64,000 bases of DNA from Dictyostelium discoideum (taxonomy: Eukaryota). The translations under genes were made by a program, and so were the position numbers. Below the pieces are notes generated by a model that was given only the letters and a program-made list of their open reading frames with translations, was not told the origin of the DNA and searched no databases. This document shows positions 1 through 39,620 of the stretch, in pieces (positions within the stretch are counted from its first letter, which is position 1; each line of letters starts with the position of its first letter). Location: assembly GCA_000004695.1 (NCBI GenBank), contig CM000152.2, forward strand, positions 4,160,001 to 4,224,000. Direction: 5' to 3'.

Positions 1-460
1 TAACATCAATAACAATAACAATATTAATTTCTCAAATAATCAAACAACATACGTAGTTACAAAGGATCAAGGCCAAACCTGTCCAATTTCCACAACTGAT
101 TGCGGATGTGGCCCATCACCAAAACCAGATCCACAACCAAGTCATCATGTTTATATGATGTAAAAAAATTATAACTTTTTTTTAAAAGTGTAAACTATGT
201 AAAAAAAAAATAAAAACTATATTTGTTGTCTATTTAATATTAAATAATCTTTTTTTTTTTTTTTTTTTTTTTTTATTTTCTCTCCTAATATTTTGGAATA
301 ACAGAGAATTAAAAATAGAAAAAATAATTATTTTTAATTTATTTTATTTAATATATTGTGTTAGATTATAAATTTTTTCATCATACAAAGTACGAGTGAG
401 AAGTATTTTATACACAATTATATGATTCCAATAATTATATGAAGTTGTTTCTTGTGTGGG

Positions 461-497
<37 letters not shown>

Positions 498-662
498 ATC
501 TATTATTTCCAACTATTTTCCATTTGAAGATATTGTTTTGTAAATGAAGATGGTGTATTTGGGGAACACATTATCGAGTCTGCTTTTTGTGCCTGTTTTT
601 GTTTTTTGGATTAGAGAAAATAAATAAAAATAATTAATAATCAATAAATAAATAATCAAAAA

Positions 663-1005
663 TTAATCAGTAAGATATCTTACATTTGCAACGGTATCAG
701 GTCTAGCCCAAATGCTAAACTTTTTATAAGAAACAGTAACAATCCAATCATTGGTGCATAGTAAATCAGTTAGTGGATCTGTGTGAACTCTGTGTGATAC
801 AATTGGTAATATTATTGGTGCAACAGTTCTTGAGAGACTATTTACAAGGATTGGAGTTGTAGGTGGGGAAATATTTAAATCTATTGGCTTTTTCTGTAAT
901 TCATTTGCTTTTTGTTGACTTTCTTTACTTAAAACTGATGATAAAGATGGTGATTCTTCCTTAGAACTATTATCATCACTATTATTACTATTATTATTAT
1001 TATTA

Positions 1006-1042
<37 letters not shown>

Positions 1043-3008
1043 TATTATTATTTAAATTATAACCTGAATTATTATTTTTATTATTTGACTTTTTTTAAAA
1101 AAAAAAAAATTAATACAGTTTCTTTTTTTTTTTTTTTTTTTTTTTATTTCCTAAATTATTAAAAAAGAAAAACTTACAAAACTTTTTCCTCTTTGTTTTC
1201 TTAGTACAGTATCTTTAGAAAAATCCCAAAGTAATAATCTTGTATCTTCACCACCAGATAGAATTCTATAATAATTTGAATCAATTGGGAAAGCATAAGG
1301 ATCAAATTTAATACAACCTACCCATGACAGATGACCCTGACCTCTTGCAACCAATTGTCTCTCTTCAAATGAGAATATACTAATGAAATCATCCTCACCA
1401 CCAGTCTAATAAAATTTTTATATTTATATATATATATATATTAATATTAATAAATATTATAATAAAAACAAATATAAAAAAAATAAAAAAAAAAAAACTC
1501 ACAGCAATATATTTTCCATCTCTACTCCAATCTACTGATAAGAAACCACCAAAATAACTCTTAAATGATAATAAATGAATTTTTCCATCAATATCATAAA
1601 TATTCAATAAACCTTCTTGACAAGCAACTGCTATATATTTGCCATCAGGCGAAAAACAAAATGAATTCACTTTCTTTTTATCAGAAACTTTCCATAGACT
1701 GACTGGATTAAATCTTGATTCCTTTTGAAGATATACTGAAAATTTAAAATCTTGTTTTTTACCACTTATACTATTATTATAACCACCATTATTATTATTA
1801 TTGCTGCTATTATTATTATTATAATTAACATTACTATTTACATTTACATTACTATTTGAAACATTATTATATTGATAGAGTAAACTTTTATGTTCTGTTC
1901 TATTTGTATCGAAAATCATAATATTTCCATTATCAAAACCTGCAATAAATCTATCATCACAATTTGGTAACCAATCTACACATAAACATTTTGTTTTTTC
2001 AAGATTCTATTAAATAGTTGTAATATAATAATTATAAGTATGATTTGAGAGAGAATTAAAAAAATTATATTAATTAATTATAAAAATAATAATTAATATT
2101 GAATACATTACATCTTTATTAAATACTTTAATATCTACTGGTTTAATTTGAGGATCAAATAATAAGATTTCACCAGTATCAGTACCAACTAGGATTTGAA
2201 GATGACTATTTTTCTTTAATTTTTTTATTTTTTGACAAAGTGCATTATAACCAGTATGAATTGGATTTATTTTCTCCTCATATTCCGCTTTATCAATATT
2301 GGTGAAATTAAATAATGATAAATTTCCAATATTTGTGAAACTAAAGTATAATTGATCTTTTTCACTTGTTGGATGGATTATATTCTTTTTACTACTATTT
2401 TTACTACCACTACTGTTACTACTACTACTACTATTACTATTACTAGTACTATTACTATTATTAATTGTACTATTGGATGGTGATGGATGAGAAGATGATT
2501 GATAATCTTCAATAGGTGTAAAAGCACCCATGGTTGAGTGTGGTATATTCAATGAATTAATTGTATTTATTGATGTAGATGATGATGCAGTATGCAATGA
2601 TGAAGTTGAGGTTGAGGATGGTGATGATGATGCTGAATTATTATTATTATTATTGTTGTTAATTATGTTATTTACATTACTTTTAGTATTATTAAATGAT
2701 GATGATGGTGTTGTATAAATAGATGATTGATGTTGTTGAAGTTGTTGTTGTTGATGATTTTTAGAACCTTTATAATAATATGAAACTTTTGGATAGCCTT
2801 TACTTGAGATGATACCTCTTTTAAATGATTTTTGATCAATTTCAACTGGAACATCTTTAATTAATTTATAATGACCTTCTGTAGTTTTAAATGAGGGTCT
2901 TATTGGTTTAGTATGTTGTACATTTGGGTTAATCCAACTAGATGCCCCTGCTAATCCATATTGACCACCAATATTTGATCCACTCCCATAAAAATGAGAT
3001 GAATTCAT
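663..3008 (-). CDS. WD40-repeat protein, multi-exon (approx. exons 663-1085, 1178-1405, ~1504-2009, ~2113-3008), with Ser/Asn/Gln-rich low-complexity N-terminal half
   Basis: Minus-strand ORFs 2070..3008, 1395..1919, 1151..1354 and a terminal exon ending at stop 663-665 join through introns with GTAAGT/GTGAGT donors and AG acceptors. The translation contains WD motifs (LSGGEDTRLLLWD, GKYIAVACQEGLLNIYD, SVDWSRDGKYIAV). Intron coordinates are approximate. Confidence 0.6.
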
Positions 3009-3010
3009 TG

Positions 3011-3042
<32 letters not shown>

Positions 3043-3537
3043 TTATAAAATAATTAAAAAAATATAAAATGAGATAATATTGTTATTATTGTTGTAGTAT
3101 TATGTGTGTGAATGAACAAAAAAAAAAAAAAAAAAAATAAAAATAAAAAAAATAAAAATAAAAAAAATTAAAAAAAAAATAAAAAAAATTTTATAAAAAA
3201 ATAAAAAAAATATATTAATTTTTTAATTTATTTTTAATACAAGTGTTTTAAGAATTCCTAGTTTGGAGTTTTTAAATTGGGTTGACTAATGTAGTATTAT
3301 CTTTTTATTCCAAAAATTTTTTAAAATAATAATTTTGATTTTAAAAAATAATAATTTTGATAATTTTGGTAATTACCCCAGTGTTCCAAAAATTTTTAAG
3401 TTTAATTTTTAATTTTTTTGATATTTTTTTTGTATTATTTTATTTTTCATTATTATTTTATTTATTTTTTATTAAAGAAATAAAAAATTGGATTTCTTTT
3501 TTTTTATTTATTTTTATTTTTTTATATTTTATTTTTT

Positions 3538-3576
<39 letters not shown>

Positions 3577-3654
3577 GAATCTTTTTTTATTTTTTCATTT
3601 TTCATTTTCATATTTTTATTTTATCAAAAAAACGATCAAAAATAGAAAATTAAT

Positions 3655-4369
3655 ATGGAAACTGAAACTCCAATGGATGTTGAAACAAAATCAACAACAA
3701 GCAACACCAATGACAATAATAATAATACCACAATTGTCAAAACCACTTCAAATATTATTAAAGAAGGTGATCATGTCATTTTAGATATAAATAATGGTGA
3801 AAAGTTCTCTGTAATTAAAGTAAAATTAGGAAGGTATGTATTTAATTATTATTATTATCATTATTATTTCAAACATATATATATACATATACAAATATTA
3901 ATATTAAAATTTTTAGTAAGGTTAAAATTGGTAAAAAACAAATTTTAATAAATTCAATTATTGGTGAATCTTATTATTCAAGTTTTCAAGTTTCAAATGA
4001 AAAGAATACATTAGAACGTATTACACAAAAAGAAATTGATGATAGATTAAACAATTTGGTTGAATTGAATCAAAATGATGCAGATAATAGAAATTTAGAT
4101 CAAAATAATACAGCACAAAAATTAACACAAGAAGATATCAATGAAATGAAACAAAAAGGTACAGACTCAAATACAATCATTAAAACAATCGTTGAAAATA
4201 GTGAAAGTTTTAAAACTAAAACTTCATTCTCACAAATTAAATATTTAAAAAAGAAAATTAAAAAATATTCAACAATCGTTAAAATTATTAAACCAACTTT
4301 AAAATCATTAACTGAAGCATATTATAAAAAAGATTCAAGAAAAATTTGGTAAGTGTTGTACAATTCTTC

Positions 4370-4401
<32 letters not shown>

Positions 4402-5436
4402 CATATTTTTTAAAAAAAATACATAAAATATATTAATTTTTTTTCTTTTTTTTTTCTTTTTTATTTTTTTATTTTAATTAGTGGTCTTAGATTTGATTCA
4501 TTTGGACAATTATTAACATTAGGTAATATTAGAGCAAATAGTCAAGTATTAGTAGTTGAAACATGTATGGGATTAGTTACTGGATCAATTGCAGAGAGAA
4601 TGAATGGTCAAGGAACAATTCTATCAGCATATATTGGTAAAGGACCATCACTATCAATTGTTAATAATTTTGGTTTCAATACAGATGTTTTAAATACAAT
4701 TTATCCATTCAATTTAAATATTACAAGTGTTTTAAATAAAGGTGAAGATATCAGTAAATTACCACCAACAGCATCATCTGGTATTTATGATAAACAAGTT
4801 AAAGAAAAAGAAAAAGAAAAAGAAAAAGATGAAAATGTAAAAGATGAAAAAGAAAGTGGTGAAGAAGCAAAAACTATTATAAATCAAAGAAATGATACAT
4901 CAAATGAAAATATTGTAAAATTATTAAAGGATGGTGGTGTTTGGTCATTGGTTATTGTTACAAAGTATTCACCATTAAATATTTTATTATCATGTTGGCC
5001 ATATTTAAATTCATCAGGTAGTTTTGTAATTTATTCACAGTTCCCACAACCATTGATGGAAGTTCATCAATTCCTTCATAAGAATCAAATGGCTGTAAAT
5101 CAACAAATCTCTGAAATTTGGATGAGAGAACATCAAGTACTACCAAAAAGAACTCATCCAATGATGGGTATGGATGGTGCAAGTGGTTTCATTTTATATG
5201 GTACTAAAGTTACAAAACCAATTCAAAAATCAACTACAACTACCACAACTACTACCACCACCACCACTAATAACTCAATCAATCCAACTAAAACCACTGC
5301 TTCATTAGATATTGAAAATAAAGTTATAGATGCAACTACATCATCATCATCATCATCAACAGCAGCAGCAACAACAACTGAAGAAGATAAAGAAGATAGT
5401 GAATCAGCATTAAAGAAAAGAAAAATTGATGAATAA
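3655..5436 (+). CDS. trmt6: tRNA (adenine58-N1)-methyltransferase non-catalytic subunit TRM6/GCD10 homolog; join(3655..3834,3921..4348,4482..5436)
   Basis: The translation aligns with human TRM6 motifs (DNRNLDQNNTAQKLTQEDINEMKQKG...KYLKKKIKKY vs DNRNIVDDGKSQKLTQDDIKALKDKG...KYIKKKKKKY; QLLTLGNIRANSQVLVVETCMGLVTGSIAERMNG vs QMLTLGNIRAGNKMIVMETCAGLVLGAMMERMGG). Splice phases are consistent (0, then 2). The acceptor of intron 1 must be the AG at 3919-3920. Confidence 0.8.
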
Positions 5437-5537
5437 TTTAGAAAAACAAAATTAATAAAAAAAATAATAATAATAATAACAAATATACCTTTTTAAAAAT
5501 TTTTAATTTAATTATATTGCGCAATATATGTTTCTTT

Positions 5538-5947: not shown

Positions 5948-6042
<95 letters not shown>

Positions 6043-6323
6043 TACTCTGTCATACCACCTTGATTTAAATCAGAACCACCATCAATAAGTTCACCATTAT
6101 TATCATAGGTTAATTTACACATTGATGTAATGATATAGTATGCAAACATATTGAGTGCATTTAATGATAAATATGCAAACCATAGCCATCCTCCAAATGT
6201 TTCACTATGATAAACGACACGATATAAAATATATGGAATTGTACCTGCTGCCATTATTAATCTAACTTTAAATAATTCTTTTTCATTTTGTGTCTTTCTT
6301 TTTTTTGCTCCTGAATTTGCCAT
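5613..6323 (-). CDS. tmem208: TMEM208 homolog (173 aa); join(complement(6046..6323),complement(5613..5856)); the intron is almost entirely a perfect (AAT)32 tract
   Basis: N-terminal exon ORF 5862..6323 (MANSGAKKRK...DGGSDLNQGGMTE) plus a second exon after a GTATGT...AG intron give 173 aa, the same length as human TMEM208. The conserved core is ...NGELIDGGSDLNQGGMTEY... vs human ...[20 protein letters not shown]... Multiple TM helices are present. Confidence 0.75.
5945..6040. repeat. Perfect (AAT)32 microsatellite, intronic (TMEM208 intron)
   Basis: Direct reading of 5945-6040. The antisense ORF 5862..6323 poly-Ile stretch is produced by reading through it. Confidence 0.9.
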
Positions 6324-7311
6324 CTTTTTTTATTATTCCTATTAATATATCTGTATATATTATATTGTGTTATACTGTAATTTTAATTGTTATTTTATTT
6401 ATATTATTTAATTTAGATGTTCACTTAAAATTAAAATTTGGATGGGTGTTGGACAATATTGATTTTCTTCTTGTGGTTGTTGTTGTTGTTGATTTTTTAA
6501 TGGAAAAAAAAAAAAAAAAAATATAAAAATAAAAAAAAAAATTTTAAAAAAAAAAAGTTTTTTTTATGGAGACCTAAAAAAAAATTTTTTTTTTTTCTTT
6601 ATTTGCCATTTTCAAAAAATTCAATAGCACCTTTTGCATATATTCATATTTTTTTTTTTTTTTCTTTTTTTCCCCTCTCTATCCTTCAATTTCTTTAGTA
6701 ATATTAATAATAATAATAATATAATACAAATAATAATACCAACTTAATATATATATTTTTTTTTAATTTTTTTTTTTTATAAAAAAATTTTATTTTTAAA
6801 TTTATTTAATTTTTTTTTTTTTTTTTTTTTTAAGCCGACCTAAAACTATTTTTTTTTATTTTTTTTTTTTTTTTATAACAAAACAACCACACACAATAAA
6901 ATTTTATTATATAAATTATATCTTTAATTGTAGTGTAATTATTTATATTCACACAAAAAAACAATAAATAATAATAAAATAATAAAACAGTAATAAAAAA
7001 AAAATATAAAAAAAAAAATAAATAAAATAAAATTAGATAAACACAAATAATAATAGAAATAAAAAAAAAATAAAAAATAAAAAAAAATATTTATATATTA
7101 TAAAATTTGGAGCACATAAATAAAACATATAAATAAACATATAAATAAATGCACCAAAAAGTTTAAACAACTTAATTTTAATATTTTAATTTTTTAATTT
7201 TTTTAATTTTTTTTAATTTTTTTTATTTTTTGTTTCCAAAAAGTAAAATAAATAAAAAATAAATCCCACATAATATACAATTTTTTTTTTTTCTTCTACC
7301 AAATATAAATA

Positions 7312-19137: not shown

Positions 19138-19326
19138 AAAGTGAAATTTATAAAATAGGATTTGAACCTATTCCATAACAAACTAGATCTTAAAAATTTT
19201 GAAAAAAAAAAAGATAGTTATCTTTTTTAACTATTAAACATACCCAAATAAAATAGATTATCTTATATATTAAAATTATTTTTCTATTTTTTGTTTTTAT
19301 TTTTAATTTAAATAATTATGTTTTAT

Positions 19327-20254
19327 TTATAATAATTTAATGAAATCAAAAGTTTGAACATCATTAGTATTGGTGATAGATTTGAAAGTGATAACAATGT
19401 TACCAGATTCGAATGACCATGACCAATAGCCACTTAAATTAGCATCGTGTTTAATAACGATAGTATGATTTGAAGTTACTTCTTGAACTGCTTCTAAAAT
19501 CATTTCATCTGCACAACGTTTTGAAAGATTTGCTGCTACTTTTTCAACGATACCAGCGAAGATATGACCGAAACTATTCTTTAAATCGTCAGCAACTTTT
19601 GGATAAACAGATTCTAATGATGATTCATCGATTGACCAATCTGATGATGATTTTAATGCTTTTTTAACTGATGATAAATTATCTTTCATTTTTTGTTCGT
19701 TTGTTTTAATATTTAAACGAGTCATTAATGAATAAACACCTTGAGTTTGAATAATTGTTTCTAATTTAAATGTGTTAACATCATTTGTGTTACATATCTT
19801 TGGACGGAATAAAATTTGACAATCACCATTTTCAAATTGATATTTCCAATATGATGATAACTTTTCATCAGCACAAACAAAAACAAATTTTTTATTTGGA
19901 ACTGCAGCTAAGAATGCTTCTTTGATTAAAGGATCTGCACCTACTTTAACCATGTTTTTAGCAAGATTACCAACAACATCTTTATAAAATATACTACCAC
20001 AACTATTTGTAACCCAAGAATCATTACATTTTGCAATAATATCTTCGAAATCAAATTCGATGGCAAATGGTTCCCCTAATGATTTTTCAATTAAGGCTAG
20101 ATTTGTTTTTAAAGATTCTTCATTATCTTTTAATGATTTTCTATAACAAATTGAATTTTTATATTAGTATTTATTTATATTAGGTATTGGTTTTTAATTA
20201 AACTTATTTTTTTAATTTAAATAATAAATACCTTGAAGTTAAAGCGAGAGGCAT
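19327..20254 (-). CDS. Tandem-family copy 1: 278-aa protein with an internal two-module repeat; join(complement(20232..20254),complement(19327..20140))
   Basis: A 23-nt first exon (MPLALTS + AG) is spliced (GT...AG, phase 2) to an 814-nt exon containing ORF 19327..19953. It is 98-100% identical to copies 2-4. Confidence 0.7.
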
Positions 20255-21955: not shown

Positions 21956-22116
21956 ACTGTTTTATTAAAAATATTAAAACTATTATAAAATAATTTGTTG
22001 TATTTTTAAATAAATAACTAATTTAATAAATTTTTAAAATTTCTTTTTCTATAAATTTAATCATTAAATTAAAAATAAAAAAATAGAAAAAAATATTTAT
22101 TTATTTAATGTTTTAT

Positions 22117-23047
22117 TTATAACAATTTAATGAAATCAAAAGTTTGAACGTCATTGGTATTGGTAATAGATTTGAAAGTGATAACAATGTTACCAGATTC
22201 GAATGACCATGACCAATAGCCACTTAAGTTAGCATCGTGTTTAATAACGATTGTATGATTTGAAGTTACTTCTTGAACTGCTTCTAAAATCATTTCGTCT
22301 GCACAACGTTTTGAAAGATTGGCTGCTACTTTTTCAACGATACCAGCAAAGATATGACCGAAACTATTCTTTAAATCGTCTGCGACTTTTGGATAAACAG
22401 ATTCTAATGATGATTCATCGATTGACCAATCTGATGATGATTTTAATGCTTTTTTAACTGATGATAAATTATCTTTCATTTTTTGTTCGTTTGTTTTAAT
22501 ATTTAAACGAGTCATTAATGAATAAACACCTTGAGTTTGAATAATTGTTTCTAATTTAAATGTGTTAACATCATTCGTGTTACATATCTTTGGACGGAAC
22601 AAAATTTGACAATCACCATTTTCAAATTGATATTTCCAATATGATGATAACTTTTCATCAGCACAAACAAAAACAAATTTTTTATTTGGAACTGCAGCTA
22701 AGAATGCTTCTTTGATTAATGGATCTGCACCTACTTTAACCATGTTTTTAGCAAGATTACCAACAACATCTTTATAAAATATACTACCACAACTATTTGT
22801 AACCCAAGAATCATTACATTTTGCAATAATATCTTCGAAATCAAATTCAATTGTAAATGTCTCACCTAATGATTTTTCAATTAAGGCTAAATTTGTTTTT
22901 AAAGATTCTTCATTATCTTTTAATGATTTTCTATAATAAATTATATATTTAAATTAGTATTTATTTATATTAAGGCATTGGTTTTTTAATACCTTATTTA
23001 GTTTTAAAACTAAATAATAAATACCTTGAAGTTAAAGCGAGAGGCAT
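22117..23047 (-). CDS. Tandem-family copy 2 (278 aa); join(complement(23025..23047),complement(22117..22930))
   Basis: ORF 22117..22743 is identical in protein to copy 1. The upstream 23-nt exon (MPLALTS) is conserved. The unit period is ~2.79 kb. Confidence 0.7.
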
Positions 23048-24768: not shown

Positions 24769-24949
24769 ACTGTTTAATTAATAATTTCAAAACTATTTTA
24801 AAAAATAATTTGTAGTATATTTAAATAAATAATTAATTTAAAAATTTCATTTTCTTTTATTTTAATTTAATAATTAAAATAAAATCTAAAACTTAATTTT
24901 TAAATAAAAAAAAGAAAAGATTATTTATTTTATTAATTTGATATTTTAT

Positions 24950-25867
24950 TTATAACAATTTTATGAAATCAAAAGTTTGAACGTCATTAGTATTGGTGAT
25001 AGATTTGAAGGTGATAACAATGTTACCAGATTCGAATGACCATGACCAATGACCATTTAAGTTAGCATCGTGTTTAATAACGATTGTATGTTTTGAAGTT
25101 ACTTCTTGAACTGCTTCTAAAATCATTTCGTCTGCACAACGTTTTGAAAGATTGGCTGCTACTTTTTCAACGATACCAGCAAAGATATGACCGAAACTAT
25201 TCTTTAAATCGTCTGCGACTTTTGGATAAACAGACTCTAATGATGATTCATCGATTGACCAATCTGATGATGATTTTAATGCTTTTTTAACTGATGATAA
25301 ATTATCTTTCATTTTTTGTTCGTTTGTTTTAATATTTAAACGAGTCATTAATGAATAAACACCTTGAGTTGGAATAATTGTTTCTAATTTAAATGTGTTA
25401 ACATCATTTGTGTTACAAATCTTTGGACGGAATAAAATTTGACAATCACCATTTTCAAATTGATATTTCCAATATGATGATAACTTTTCATCAGCACAAA
25501 CAAAAACAAATTTTTTATTTGGAACTGCAGCTAAGAATGCTTCTTTGATTAAAGGATCTGCACCTACTTTAACCATGTTTTTAGCAAGATTACCAACAAC
25601 ATCTTTATAAAATATACTACCACAACTATTTGTAACCCAAGAATCATTACATTTTGCAATAATATCTTCGAAATCAAATTCAATTGCAAATGGCTCACCT
25701 AATGATTTTTCAATTAAGGCTAAATTTGTTTTTAAAGATTCTTCATTATCTTTTAATGATTTTCTATAATAAATTATAATATAAGTATAAATTAATATAT
25801 ATTTTTATTAATCTTTTTAATAACATTTAATTATAATAAAATACCTTGAAGTTAAAGAGAGTGGCAT
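24950..25867 (-). CDS. Tandem-family copy 3 (278 aa; variant residues P, K, N, H); join(complement(25845..25867),complement(24950..25763))
   Basis: ORF 24950..25576. The first exon encodes MPLSLTS. It carries copy-specific substitutions (SKHTIVIKHDANLNGHW, IIPTQG). Confidence 0.7.
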
Positions 25868-26362: not shown

Positions 26363-27263
26363 ATGCCTCTCGCTTTAACATCAAGGTATATATTTTTTTT
26401 TTTTTTTTTTTTTTTTTAAATTGTTAATATTAATAAATTTTAATTATAGAAAATCATTAAAAGATAATGAAGAATCTTTAAAAACAAATTTAGCCTTAAT
26501 TGAAAAATCGTTAGGTGAGCCATTTGCAATTGAATTTGATTTCGAAGATATTATTGCAAAATGTAATGATTCTTGGGTTACAAATAGTTGTGGTAGTATA
26601 TTTTATAAAGATGTTGTTGGTAATCTTGCTAAAAACATGGTTAAAGTAGGTGCAGATCCATTAATCAAAGAAGCATTCTTAGCTGCAGTTCCAAATAAAA
26701 AATTTGTTTTTGTTTGTGCTGATGAAAAGTTATCATCATATTGGAAATATCAATTTGAAAATGGTGATTGTCAAATTTTGTTCCGTCCAAAGATATGTAA
26801 CACGAATGATGTTAACACATTTAAATTAGAAACAATTATTCCAACTCAAGGTGTTTATTCATTAATGACTCGTTTAAATATTAAAACAAACGAACAAAAA
26901 ATGAAAGATAATTTATCATCAGTTAAAAAAGCATTAAAATCATCATCAGATTGGTCAATCGATGAATCATCATTAGAATCTGTTTATCCAAAAGTTGCTG
27001 ACGATTTAAAGAATAGTTTCGGTCATATCTTCGCTGGTATCGTTGAAAAAGTAGCAGCAAATCTTTCAAAACGTTGTGCAGATGAAATGATTTTAGAAGC
27101 AGTTCAAGAAGTAACTTCAAATCATACTATCGTTATTAAACACGATGCTAATTTAAGTGGCTATTGGTCATGGTCATTCGAATCTGGTAACATTGTTATC
27201 ACCTTTAAATCAATCACCAATACAAATGATGTTCAAACCTTTGATTTCATTAAATTGTTATAA
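26363..27263 (+). CDS. Tandem-family copy 4 (278 aa), inverted relative to copies 1-3 and head-to-head with copy 3; join(26363..26385,26450..27263)
   Basis: ATG at 26363, AG|GTATAT donor at 26385 and acceptor AG at 26448-26449 join in frame to ORF 26421..27263 (which starts at an alternative TTG only as an ORF-finder artefact). Confidence 0.75.
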
Positions 27264-27405
27264 ATAATAATTCAAAATAAAAATAAATAAACTCATTTAA
27301 AAACTAACTATTAATTTATTTAAATTATTTATATTATTTATTATTTTCTTTTTATTTTTTTTTATTTTTTTTTTTTTTATTTTTTTTTTTTTTTTTGTTA
27401 ATTTA

Positions 27406-33115: not shown

Positions 33116-34082
33116 ATGAGAAAAACAGTAAGAAAGAATAAACAAGTTAAAAGAGAATTAGCATTATTAGAAAAAGAAAAAGAAGAGATTGAATCATTTA
33201 CTAAAGTTTCAAAAACAGTAGAAAATAAACAATCAATTAATTCAAATTGGAATGTAACAAAAGAAAAGATTAAAAATAAAAATAATGCATATCAAAAGAA
33301 AAAAGAAGCAAAGTTAAAATTAAAATCAGCAACTCCTTATACAAGTACAAAAGTAATTGAAGAAAAAAAACCACATATTAAAGATTTTAATCAATTATGT
33401 CAAGAACATAATATAATTTCACCAATTGATGATAATTTAGTTTCACCAACTCAAAAAGAAATTGATAATTTGTATGTTTTTCATTTTTAAATTTAATTTA
33501 TTTATTATTAATATTAATATTATTATTATTATTTTAAAAAGAAATGAAAGTTCAAAATTTTTTTCAATTGATTGTAAAATTATAGAGATTGAAGGTAATA
33601 AAGGTACATTGGGTAAAGTTTGTATAGCAAATCAAAATGGTCAAATAATTTATGAGAAAATAGTTAAACCAATGGATAAAATTGTAGATTTTAGAACTAA
33701 ATTCACTGGTTTAACAAGAGATAAAGTTCAAAGAGAAGGTACAGATTTTTTACAAGTTCAAAAGGAGGTTGAAAAGATTTTAAGACATAAGATTTTGGTT
33801 GGTCATGATTTAGTACATGATTTAAAGAATTTAAAATTAGCACATAAAAAGAAATTATTAAGAGATGCAACTCAATTCACTAAATTTTTTAATCCAGATA
33901 CAAATTCTGAAGATTCTTTAAAATCAATTGCAAAACGTGAATTAAATTTCTCACCTGATAATTGGGATCCAAATGGAAAGAGAGATACTATCATCAACGT
34001 TATTTTATATAAACAAAACCAAAAAGAATGGGAAGCTTTTATTAATAATAAGTTTTATGGTCAACCAATTGATAAAAATTAA
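33116..34082 (+). CDS. REX4/REXO4-type DEDDh 3'-5' RNA exonuclease (298 aa); join(33116..33471,33542..34082)
   Basis: A basic N-terminal region, then after a phase-2 GTATGT intron the exonuclease core (FSIDCKIIEIEG...VCIANQNGQIIYEKIVKPMDKIVDFRTKFTGLTRDKV...LVGHDLVHDLKNLKLAHKKKLLRDATQF) matching REX4 (VAMDCEMVGVG...[37 protein letters not shown]...[26 protein letters not shown]). Confidence 0.75.
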
Positions 34083-34261
34083 AATTATAAAAAAAAAAAT
34101 AAAAAATAAAAATAAAACTAATTATAATGGTTTAAATCTGAAATTAATTTATTTTTTATCTTTTATGGAATATTTCCACCTTGTTTCACACTTTAATTTA
34201 AATTATGAAAATTAAGGTAAAACAAGCTTTAACCTTATTATTTAAAAGATTTATAGGTTTT

Positions 34262-34500
34262 TTTTTTTTTTTTTTTTAAATTAGATAACGCAATGTTTAG
34301 TTGTTTCTCCTTGAGATTCTAGATCTTTTAATTTTTAGTTAATTTTATAAGGCCTCTTTAGGAAAAGGGTTAATACTTTTATGTGTTCTGAAGTCTCATC
34401 TTCCCCACACTGTTGGTATGGCATGTTGTATATTTTTGGTAGTGCTTTCAGTGTGCATCTCCATAATAGGTCTCTCCCTTAATAAATTTGAGCCGAGGGA
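34262..34500. other. ~240-bp island of much lower A+T (~60%) ending in an A-rich tail, 27 bp upstream of tRNA-Ala; candidate 5'-truncated tRNA-gene-targeted non-LTR retroelement (TRE5-like) 3' fragment or an unannotated ncRNA
   Basis: It has no ORF, and its composition is sharply different from the flanking intergenic DNA. It terminates in gaagtaaaaaacaaaaaa directly upstream of a tRNA gene, the preferred target of Dictyostelium TRE5 elements. Confidence 0.25.
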
Positions 34501-34527
34501 GAAGTAAAAAACAAAAAATTTCATCAT

Positions 34528-34623
34528 GGGGATGTAGCTCATATGGTAGAGCGTATGGTTTGCATAAACAGCAACGATAATCAGAGTTCCATAAGGTAAA
34601 GGGATCGATACCCTTCTTCTCCA
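34528..34623 (+). tRNA. tRNA-Ala (anticodon UGC) with a 23-nt intron (34565..34587) between positions 37 and 38
   Basis: GGGGATG acceptor, TA, GCTC/GAGC D-stem, anticodon stem TATGG/CCATA, loop TTTGCAT (anticodon TGC at 34561-34563), T-arm AAGGG-ATCGATA-CCCTT, 3' acceptor CTTCTCC and discriminator A, followed by a T-run (AAATTTTG) Pol III terminator. The G3:U70 pair is the Ala identity element. A T6:T67 mismatch and A54 are unusual. Confidence 0.7.
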
Positions 34624-34648
34624 AATTTTGTCTCCATCATTTAAAGAT

Positions 34649-34666
34649 CACAGGTTCGACTCTCTG
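34649..34666 (+). promoter_or_regulatory. External B box (exB) downstream of the tRNA gene
   Basis: CACAGGTTCGACTCTCTG matches the Pol III B-box consensus GGTTCGANTCC and lies ~45 bp downstream of the internal B box. Extra downstream B boxes are a known feature of most Dictyostelium tRNA genes. Confidence 0.6.
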
Positions 34667-34900
34667 AGTTTATATCAATCTTAATGACCCTGTCCTATTC
34701 AACTTTGAATTTTTTGGTTCATACACCCTCGCTGATAACCAAATATTTATTTATATACCGAAAAAGAACTTTGGGAAAAAAACCTTTTTATAAATTTTAT
34801 AATACAAAAAAAAAAAAATAAAAATAACTAAATAAACGACTAGTATTTCTTAAAACCAAGTCTCACAAATAATTCATCTTAAACATTTTTTTTGGAGTTT

Positions 34901-39620
<4,720 letters not shown>

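Follow-up and report, generated by a model that had tools for sequence, protein, structure and literature searches.

The GC-richer block of intergenic DNA immediately upstream of a functional tRNA-Ala(UGC) gene in the analysed window (the whole 64-kb stretch of Dictyostelium discoideum DNA) is very probably (probability ca. 0.88) a decayed and truncated copy of the retrotransposon TRE5-A, lying on the minus strand. TRE5-A, formerly called DRE, is an L1-like non-LTR retrotransposon of D. discoideum that is targeted to tRNA genes. The remnant is approximately 230–245 bp long and consists of a 5′-truncated ORF2 piece joined directly to a C-module and an A20 tail. A truncated TRE5 insertion had been proposed at this place in a preliminary description of the sequence; this was borne out, and the three components, including an ORF2 piece with 94% identity to another D. 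discoideum copy (L004), indicated the TRE5-A type. The spliced REXO4 protein encoded in the window was exactly identical to that of D. discoideum AX4 (XP_640882.1/Q54U94). The locus was compared among five lineages, namely, D. discoideum, two lineages of D. cf. discoideum (L001 and L007), D. citrinum (L002) and D. dimigraforme (L006), with genic identities of 81%–91%.

The ORF2 part of the remnant is a zinc-finger fragment (34381–34484, minus strand), with weak homology extending perhaps to about 34503, and it translates as GRDLLWRCTLKALPKIYNMPYQQCGEDETSEHI, with Tyr in place of one zinc-finger Cys. Of the APE-RT-ZF protein encoded by TRE5-A ORF2, the zinc-finger portion is all that remains. 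Positions 34380–34480 of the window aligned over 101 nt with positions 3563–3663 of L004 at the 94% identity given above (E = 2e-33) and were 86% identical to positions 6392–6491 of L001, and the encoded peptide matched the multi-copy D. discoideum proteins P0007 and P0010 at 31 of 33 residues. At the orthologous L001 site lies a longer copy that aligns colinearly with L004 for 1447 bp, and its ORF matched the Pfam family zf-RVT (E = 2.5e-5) with a score of 25.3 bits, which is just below the Pfam cutoff of 27.5 bits. Next to the ORF2 piece, a mutated C-module, corresponding to the end of the 3′ UTR, was located by blastn (34278–34386, minus strand), with identities of 72%–74% to L004 (4465–4630), 79% to L001 (5304–5419) and 80% to L002 (5673–5755); overall, the segment 34235–34387 matched L004 in its 3′ module and poly(A). 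The poly(A) tail (A20), read as T20 on the plus strand (34258–34277), directly follows the C-module 3′ end ...GCGTTATCTAATTT, and the L004 counterpart reads ...GCGTTATCCAATTC(A)17.

The terminal hairpins of this C-module have been lost. Its last 56 nt were predicted to fold at −1.8 kcal/mol (z +0.7), and the same C-module end in three other copies folded at −8.9 to −11.3 kcal/mol (z −2.4 to −2.8). The C-module hairpin is essential for retrotransposition. With this hairpin destroyed by mutation, the remnant can no longer move. The orthologous site in D. dimigraforme was empty of TRE5-A, from which it follows that the upstream block is an insertion. Within the 64 kb, no second copy of the island was detected, as a whole-window repeat search and blastn returned low-complexity matches only. 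The flanks of the remnant showed a weak resemblance between AAAAGATTT and AAAAAATTT in A-rich DNA, which was not convincing as a target-site duplication.

The base composition around the tRNA gene was evaluated against 100-nt windows taken outside open frames of 90 or more codons; their median GC content was 0.15 (95th percentile, 0.31; 99th percentile, 0.39). The longest stretch in which GC stayed at 0.30 or above extended from 34311 to 34780, with a maximum of 0.42. The impression that the tRNA gene is flanked by GC-richer segments was confirmed: GC content was 0.34 in the upstream part (34278–34497) and only 0.30 in the downstream part (34665–34768), the latter being under the 95th percentile. 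The upstream island stands out in AT-rich intergenic DNA because the remnant has retained the base composition of coding and UTR DNA, and the simplest reading of a GC-richer intergenic island beside a Dictyostelium tRNA gene is retrotransposon debris.

The downstream island (34665–34768) is specific to D. discoideum. No counterpart was found at the orthologous sites in L001, L002, L006 and L007, each of which has a different sequence there, and blastn gave no match to it in any compared locus or elsewhere in the window. Its predicted folding was unremarkable (z +0.65 and +0.51). It is most likely either ordinary fast-evolving spacer or the remnant of an insertion in the target zone downstream of the tRNA gene. 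In particular, a short remnant of a downstream-targeting retroelement, i.e., one of TRE3-A to -D or Skipper-2, is a possible but unlikely origin. [quoted passage not shown] However, A-runs occur everywhere in this genome, the GC content of the island is unexceptional for non-ORF windows, and the DNA comparison gave no similarity to any compared locus. Neither open frame had a protein homologue: an exhaustive protein search with the frame starting at 34669 returned only two spurious matches to repeat proteins, and no candidate homologue was found for the other.

The assignment of the upstream remnant to a particular TRE5 family depends largely on its relatives. Only TRE5-A has an ORF2-B-C layout (PMC3159450); the 3′ B-module, which repeats the start of ORF1 and lies between ORF2 and the C-module, separates it from TRE5-B and TRE5-C. 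L004 contains, in order, ORF2, an A-run, a module with the ORF1 start, an A-run, a terminal module of about 100 nt and A17, and the published TRE5-A ORF1 primer Rep-108 matched its B-module with one indel. Two ORF2 primers published for TRE5-A had no match in L004; this copy spans only the final third of that frame. A tRNA-Met gene on the other strand has its 5′ end about 47–59 bp away from the 5′-truncated end of L004. The window copy has lost about 800 bp by deletion, comprising the ORF2 end and the 3′ B-module; L004 and L001, its closest relatives, still have the B-module. The family name TRE5-A is therefore best regarded as a probable assignment, based on this structure, on the one primer match and on the 94% identity to L004 as against 71% to L005.

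The absence of the B-module raises the alternative that the remnant belongs to TRE5-C, which likewise ends in a C-module without a 3′ B-module. The direct contact of ORF2 with the C-module in the window copy would fit TRE5-C, and the C-module was about equally close to L005, which has a C-module and no B-module (74%), and to L004 (72%–74%). This origin is nevertheless improbable. The ORF2 piece was far closer in sequence to the B-module-bearing L004 than to L005, and the same was found at the protein level (31 of 33 residues, compared with 23 of 33). Furthermore, whichever family is assumed, the window copy lacks about 100 ORF2 codons after ‘SEHI’, and a deletion must be postulated in both cases.

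The truncated 5′ end of the TRE5-A remnant is proximal to the tRNA and its poly(A) distal, in agreement with the rule that the 5′ end of TRE5-A faces the tRNA (PMC5391098 and PMC3159450). This rule tells where the poly(A) tail should be sought. The preliminary description had recognised an A-rich tail 27 bp from the tRNA; the A-rich stretch does exist, near 34505–34520, but it is part of the native tRNA 5′ flank (34485–34527, plus strand), which is conserved in species without the element, and the true poly(A) is the T20 tract at the far upstream end. The proximal ca. 20 nt of this flank resemble those of D. dimigraforme (L006) and D. citrinum (L002) and, less clearly, those of L001 and L007; no TRE5-A was present at the orthologous site in L006 and L007. 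The junction with the element lies between 34484, where secure homology ends (43 bp from the tRNA), and about 34503, where weak homology ends (24 bp). The resulting distance of 24–43 bp is at or below both the usual value of 47 ± 3 bp and the published range of 37–90 bp upstream of the tRNA, and shorter distances have been reported for 5′-truncated copies with target-site deletion.

Taken together, the remnant shares with TRE5-A the ORF2 zinc-finger homology, a C-module followed by oligo(A), an orientation in which its 5′ end faces that of the tRNA gene, a site some tens of bp upstream of that gene and the 5′ truncation that is typical of the family. Unlike TRE5-A, it is a dead fragment with a mutated zinc-finger Cys and without the C-module hairpins, and it has lost the ORF2 end and the B-module by a deletion different from that of the TRE5-A.2 variant.

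The tRNA-Ala(UGC) gene beside the remnant occupies 34528–34623 on the plus strand. The identification as an intron-containing gene with a T-run terminator had been made from the letters alone and was substantiated by a covariance-model scan with Rfam, in which RF00005 matched 34528–34623 (plus strand) at 49.1 bits, well above the gathering score of 29. In this match, the anticodon loop carried an insertion of 25 nt. With introns allowed, ARAGORN called tRNA-Ala(tgc) with a 23-nt intron; no tRNA was called in its default mode, which is a limit of that mode. The gene is divided into exon 1 (34528–34564), an intron of 23 nt (34565–34587) between positions 37 and 38, the canonical eukaryotic site, and exon 2 (34588–34623), all on the plus strand, with the anticodon TGC at 34561–34563. 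The alanine identity pair G3:U70 is present (G3 = 34530, T70 = 34620). The Pol III terminator is the TTTT (34626–34629, plus strand) inside an AATTTT motif that is invariant in the five lineages.

Two peculiarities that had been pointed out earlier, T6:T67 and A54, were both present. T6:T67 (34533 and 34617) is the sole non-standard pair in the cloverleaf, and A54 is located at 34604, in the internal B-box region (about 34595–34612, plus strand). The internal B box differs from the consensus GTCnnnnGTTCRAnYC at three positions, A48, A54 and A60. These features had suggested a slightly degenerate copy, and both the non-standard acceptor-stem pair and the deviating B box could be expected of a pseudogene. 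Such a status is, however, highly improbable. All 73 exon bases were identical in the five lineages, even though the flanks have diverged and been rearranged, and 21 of the 23 intron bases were invariant. The AATTTT motif and the core of the external B box were kept in the same way, while the remaining flanks were not conserved. Because exons, terminator and external B box have stayed unchanged while the flanks diverged, the gene is under selection and not degenerate. The Rfam score far exceeds the threshold, and A48, A54 and A60 correspond to a known tRNA-Ala signature, since A54/A58 together with A48 and a purine at position 60 are characteristic of eukaryotic tRNA-Ala (Westhof et al. 2020, PMC7566577). 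Thus, the locus is a working nuclear tRNA-Ala(UGC) gene in the usual Dictyostelium layout, its expression and charging being predicted from conservation only.

The agreement with the unusual eukaryotic tRNA-Ala (PMC7566577) includes A48, A54, A58, the purine at position 60, A16, U17 and G3:U70. Several differences were also observed: position 15 is U rather than a purine, G30 pairs with C40 and not with U40, and the isoacceptor is UGC, whereas the signature has been reported mainly for AGC in a study in which Amoebozoa were not discussed. The A48/A54/A60 signature of tRNA-Ala occurs here in an amoebozoan UGC isoacceptor, alongside a weakened internal and a conserved external B box.

The external B box, GGTTCGACTC (34653–34662, plus strand), fits the B-box core consensus GTTCRAnYC (PMC3159450) at every position, in contrast to the internal B box, and is conserved in the five lineages. 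Its core has the same spacing from the tRNA in all five, and the spacer in front of it is not conserved. The motif GGTTCRANYC was found twice in the 64 kb, compared with 0.57 matches expected by chance. An external B box had been placed about 45 bp downstream in the preliminary description; the box itself is real, but it starts 30 nt past the 3′ end of the tRNA-Ala gene, which is also closer than the distance of about 41 bp given in the literature. External B boxes have been reported in 66%–80% of D. discoideum tRNA genes. With the Dictyostelium tRNA genes that have such a box, the present gene shares the internal A and B boxes, the oligo-T terminator and the downstream GTTCRAnYC box, but its internal B box, unlike the Dictyostelium consensus, deviates at the three positions noted above. 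The external B box is a putative second TFIIIC site about 30 nt downstream of the gene. More tentatively, for this tRNA family it might serve as the main entry site of TFIIIC and offset an internal promoter weakened by constraints of tRNA structure, a doubtful but conceivable role. If true, this would provide a concrete function for the long-noted, poorly explained external B boxes of dictyostelids.

Two further origins of the upstream island were considered, both with very little probability. The Ty3/gypsy element DGLT-A (formerly “H3R”) targets Dictyostelium tRNA genes, integrating 13–33 bp upstream of them, and leaves LTRs of 265 bp behind (PMC5006619, Table 1). A solo LTR of this element would fit the size (about 220–250 bp) and tRNA distance of the block and could be delimited by a TGTTT...AAACA pair seen by eye at 34295 and 34514. 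However, these putative LTR ends have no target-site duplication, nothing except the TRE5-homologous regions is common to the island and L005 (a gypsy-type pol locus), and the whole block is explained by the non-LTR homology of its 94% identical ORF2 zinc-finger piece, C-module and poly(A). This candidate was dropped on the homology to ORF2 and the C-module and is effectively refuted by the TRE5-A match. The equally far-fetched possibility that the 240-bp island is a structured non-coding RNA gene, suggested earlier and favoured by its raised GC content and a local stem (CTCTCCCT...AGGGAGAG, about 34471–34500), is contradicted by the lack of any Rfam match to the island at E ≤ 10, by folding energies on both strands that did not surpass those of shuffled controls (z +0.06 and −0.18), and by its derivation from a retroelement and its absence from the orthologous sites of D. 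dimigraforme and one D. cf. discoideum. Since both the Rfam scan and the folding controls were negative and the block matched a retroelement, two further hints of a non-coding RNA, a Class-I-like stem and a DUSE-like CCCACA motif, were also discarded.

Returning to the TRE5-A remnant, its history might be envisaged as follows. A TFIIIC/TFIIIB complex on the tRNA-Ala gene would have attracted TRE5-A, which would then have integrated some tens of bp upstream through target-primed reverse transcription. TRE5-A copies occur at the orthologous site in D. discoideum, D. cf. discoideum and D. citrinum, and the window copy is 86% identical to an ortholog and 94% identical to a paralog. These copies may descend from one ancestral insertion or may reflect recurrent hits, as identities of 86% and 94% fit both. 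A tRNA gene with a TRE5-A remnant beside it is already known biology and matters little beyond correct annotation. Across the five close lineages, the orthologous tRNA site was found to carry differently decayed TRE5-A, to be empty or to contain rearranged tRNA fragments. These differences illustrate rapid turnover at a fixed Pol III landmark.

The product of the two-exon exonuclease gene at 33116-33471 and 33542-34082, which ends upstream of the GC-richer block 5′ of the tRNA gene (the upstream island), matched RNA exonuclease 4 of Dictyostelium discoideum AX4 exactly (XP_640882.1, Q54U94), identifying the window as D. discoideum nuclear DNA. Orthologues of the intergenic region were retrieved by homologue search and contig look-up from four relatives, namely the D. 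cf. discoideum lineages ACTFIZ (L001) and ACTFIY (L007), each with a genic identity to the window of ca. 91%, D. citrinum (L002; ca. 86%) and D. dimigraforme (L006; ca. 83%). In D. purpureum (L003; ca. 70%), synteny was lost. The median GC content of 100-nt windows outside long open frames was 0.15 across the 64 kb, and 34311-34780 was the longest stretch outside such frames with GC of at least 0.30; the composition anomaly noticed on the flanks of the tRNA gene is real.

In Rfam, the tRNA gene at 34528-34623 (+ strand) reached 49.1 bits (threshold, 29), with 25 nt inserted into the anticodon loop of the alignment. ARAGORN made no tRNA call for this gene in default mode and called tRNA-Ala(tgc) with a 23-nt intron when introns were allowed. 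As read from the sequence, exon 1 (34528-34564), an intron directly after position 37 (34565-34587), exon 2 (34588-34623) and a TTTT terminator (34626-34629) follow one another on the + strand, confirming the intron-containing tRNA-Ala(UGC) of the preliminary description. The gene carries G3:U70, a T6:T67 mismatch and the T-loop ATCGATA with A54, and the mismatch and A54 had raised the possibility of a slightly degenerate copy. In an alignment of the window with the four orthologous sites, however, all 73 exon positions were invariant, including T6, T67 and A54, amid diverged flanks, which makes a degenerate copy very unlikely. Outside the exons, invariance across the five lineages extended to 21 of the 23 intron positions, to AATTTT and to the external B box (exB) core, whereas the 5′ flank past about -13, the terminator-exB spacer and everything further out were not conserved. 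This pattern points to purifying selection on the tRNA, the terminator and the downstream promoter element, and the conserved tRNA-Ala(UGC) gene, with its intron and exB, is predicted to be functional.

A54 is itself a known feature of eukaryotic cytosolic tRNA-Ala, in which it pairs with A58, alongside A48 and a position-60 purine (PMC7566577). The window gene shares A48, A54, A58, A60, A16 and U17 with these tRNAs but has U15 instead of a purine and the anticodon UGC instead of AGC. Its internal B box (34595-34612, GTA AAGG GATCGATAC) deviates from GTCnnnnGTTCRAnYC exactly at the tRNA-Ala-specific A48, A54 and A60. The exB proposed downstream of the gene was recovered as GGTTCGACTC at 34653-34662 (+ strand), a perfect match to the core GTTCRAnYC at a conserved position; its motif occurs twice in the 64 kb against 0.57 matches expected, and an exB has been reported to follow 66-80% of the tRNA genes in D. 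discoideum (PMC3159450; PMC5911963). Mildly new here are the presence of the eukaryotic A48/A54/A60 signature in an amoebozoan UGC isoacceptor and the coincidence of the signature bases with the internal B box deviations, beside a perfectly matching, positionally conserved exB. In D. citrinum, a second B-box-like sequence, GGTTCGAATC, was found 3′ of the tRNA (L002, ca. 6010-6130) within what resembles the 3′ portion of a further tRNA (...GACCTTGGTTCGAATCTTGGTCTCACCA). This segment, for which Rfam and ARAGORN made no call, may be a fragment of a tRNA or an element derived from one.

The key lead to the identity of the upstream island came from the ACTFIZ site, where ca. 1.4 kb of extra DNA includes a minus-strand 128-aa ORF matching Pfam zf-RVT. 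With the extended reading frame as the query, 22 related proteins were found in D. discoideum, D. cf. discoideum and D. citrinum, indicating a multi-copy family. Translated on the minus strand, the island in the window gives GRDLLWRCTLKALPKIYNMPYQQCGEDETSEHI (ACTFIZ counterpart, GRDLLWRYTLKALPKIYNKPCQLCGENETSEHIFFNC), a peptide that matched the D. discoideum proteins P0007 and P0010 at 31 of 33 residues. At the locus encoding P0007 (L004), the ORF2 C-terminus is followed by an A-run, ca. 300 nt holding an ORF1-like start (MKITNNTT...), a second A-run, a ca. 100-nt terminal module and A17. A 3′ B-module, which duplicates the ORF1 start, is exclusive to TRE5-A, and the C-module is the terminus of TRE5-A and TRE5-C but not of TRE5-B (PMC3159450). 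The L004 layout thus appears to be the ORF2-B-C arrangement of TRE5-A.1, and the published TRE5-A ORF1 primer Rep-108 (PMC4559204) fits its B-module with one indel. The gap between the 5′-truncated end of this copy and the 5′ end of an opposite-strand tRNA-Met gene is ca. 47-59 bp; both this position and the orientation are canonical for TRE5 (PMC5391098). The ACTFIZ sequence aligns colinearly with L004 over 1447 bp (L001 5276-6711).

Read along the minus strand, the window copy begins with the ORF2 zinc-finger region (34484-34381; 94% identical to L004 3563-3663, E=2e-33), where one zinc-finger cysteine has become Tyr. The copy then switches abruptly at 34381-34386 to the start of the C-module (34386-34278; 72-80% identical to L004, L001 and L002) and so lacks the last ca. 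100 ORF2 codons and the entire B-module (ca. 800 bp); A20 follows (T20 on the + strand) at 34277-34258. The last 56 nt of the C-module fold into two hairpins in L004, L001 and L002 (-8.9 to -11.3 kcal/mol, z -2.4 to -2.8), whereas the corresponding 56 nt of the window copy reach only -1.8 kcal/mol (z +0.7). As a predicted hairpin structure in the terminal C-module is reported to be essential for retrotransposition (PMC3159450), its loss would render the copy dead. The suggestion of a truncated TRE5 insertion was therefore borne out, and we interpret the block, from its sequence, as a dead, internally deleted, 5′-truncated TRE5-A remnant in the obligatory head-to-head orientation. A tRNA gene accompanied by such a remnant is textbook Dictyostelium genome biology.

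Homology of the element is secure up to 34484, leaving 43 bp to the tRNA, and a gapped, weaker resemblance extends to ca. 34503 (24 bp); the 5′ junction is uncertain. Shorter-than-usual distances are known for 5′-truncated TRE5-A insertions with target-site deletion (PMC3159450), and no convincing target-site duplication was found around the window insertion. The A-rich stretch adjoining the tRNA, previously taken as the tail of the island, resembles the native flank of D. citrinum and of D. dimigraforme, which has no TRE5-A at the orthologous site. The stretch is thus not the poly(A) tail of the element, which is instead the T20 at 34258-34277.

Absence of the B-module from the window copy would also fit TRE5-C, a minor rival given that the ORF2 piece shares 94% identity with the B-module-bearing L004 against only 71% with the C-module-only L005. 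A DGLT-A solo LTR would suit the island in size (265 bp) and in distance to the tRNA (13-33 bp) (PMC5006619), but the sequence is fully accounted for by TRE5-A. The structured RNA proposed for the 240-bp island was not supported, with no Rfam match at E<=10 and folding z-scores of +0.06 and -0.18. L005, a D. discoideum strain contig, is transposon-rich at 1-4802 and 6001-6832; there, a gypsy-type pol (RVT_1, RNase H, rve) adjoins a TRE5-like ORF2 C-terminus that leads directly into the C-module without a B-module, a layout consistent with TRE5-C.

The orthologous sites differ in TRE5-A content. The D. dimigraforme site is empty (L006 4487-4834, without TRE5-A homology; tRNA-Ala(UGC) gene at 4835-4930), D. 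citrinum has a short copy, B(3′ end)-A31-C-A14, and ACTFIZ has an ORF2-B-C copy; the ACTFIY site has no TRE5-A but is rearranged. One insertion, postdating the divergence from D. dimigraforme, could have been followed by differing deletions and one loss, or insertions might have occurred repeatedly at one tRNA gene; both scenarios fit the data, and identities do not separate them. The ACTFIY contig also holds a partial 5′-half copy of the tRNA-Ala gene (L007 4689-4759), separated by a ca. 470-bp insert from the intact gene downstream, and, beyond the latter, a duplicate of the tRNA 3′ end and exB in inverted orientation (5405-5462).

GC was only moderately raised (0.30) in the downstream island (34665-34768). 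This island had no counterpart at the four orthologous sites, which carry in its place a (CAAAC)n microsatellite, ca. 600 bp of other DNA, unrelated sequence or the inverted tRNA 3′-end duplicate. Its DNA resembled none of the fetched loci and nothing else in the 64-kb window and did not fold unusually, and no homologues were found for the two + strand frames open across it. [quoted passage not shown] From ca. 34769 on, conservation with both D. cf. discoideum sites resumes, probably representing the 3′ end of a neighbouring minus-strand gene with an ORF ending at 34901. The ACTFIZ microsatellite, of (CAAAC)n type, spans ca. 150 bp directly 3′ of the exB (L001, ca. 6890-7040). Elsewhere in the window, four copies of ca. 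850-900 nt in mixed orientation (19251-20146, 22097-22940, 24915-25773 and 26440-27339), 95-97% identical, look like a local cluster of duplicated genes.
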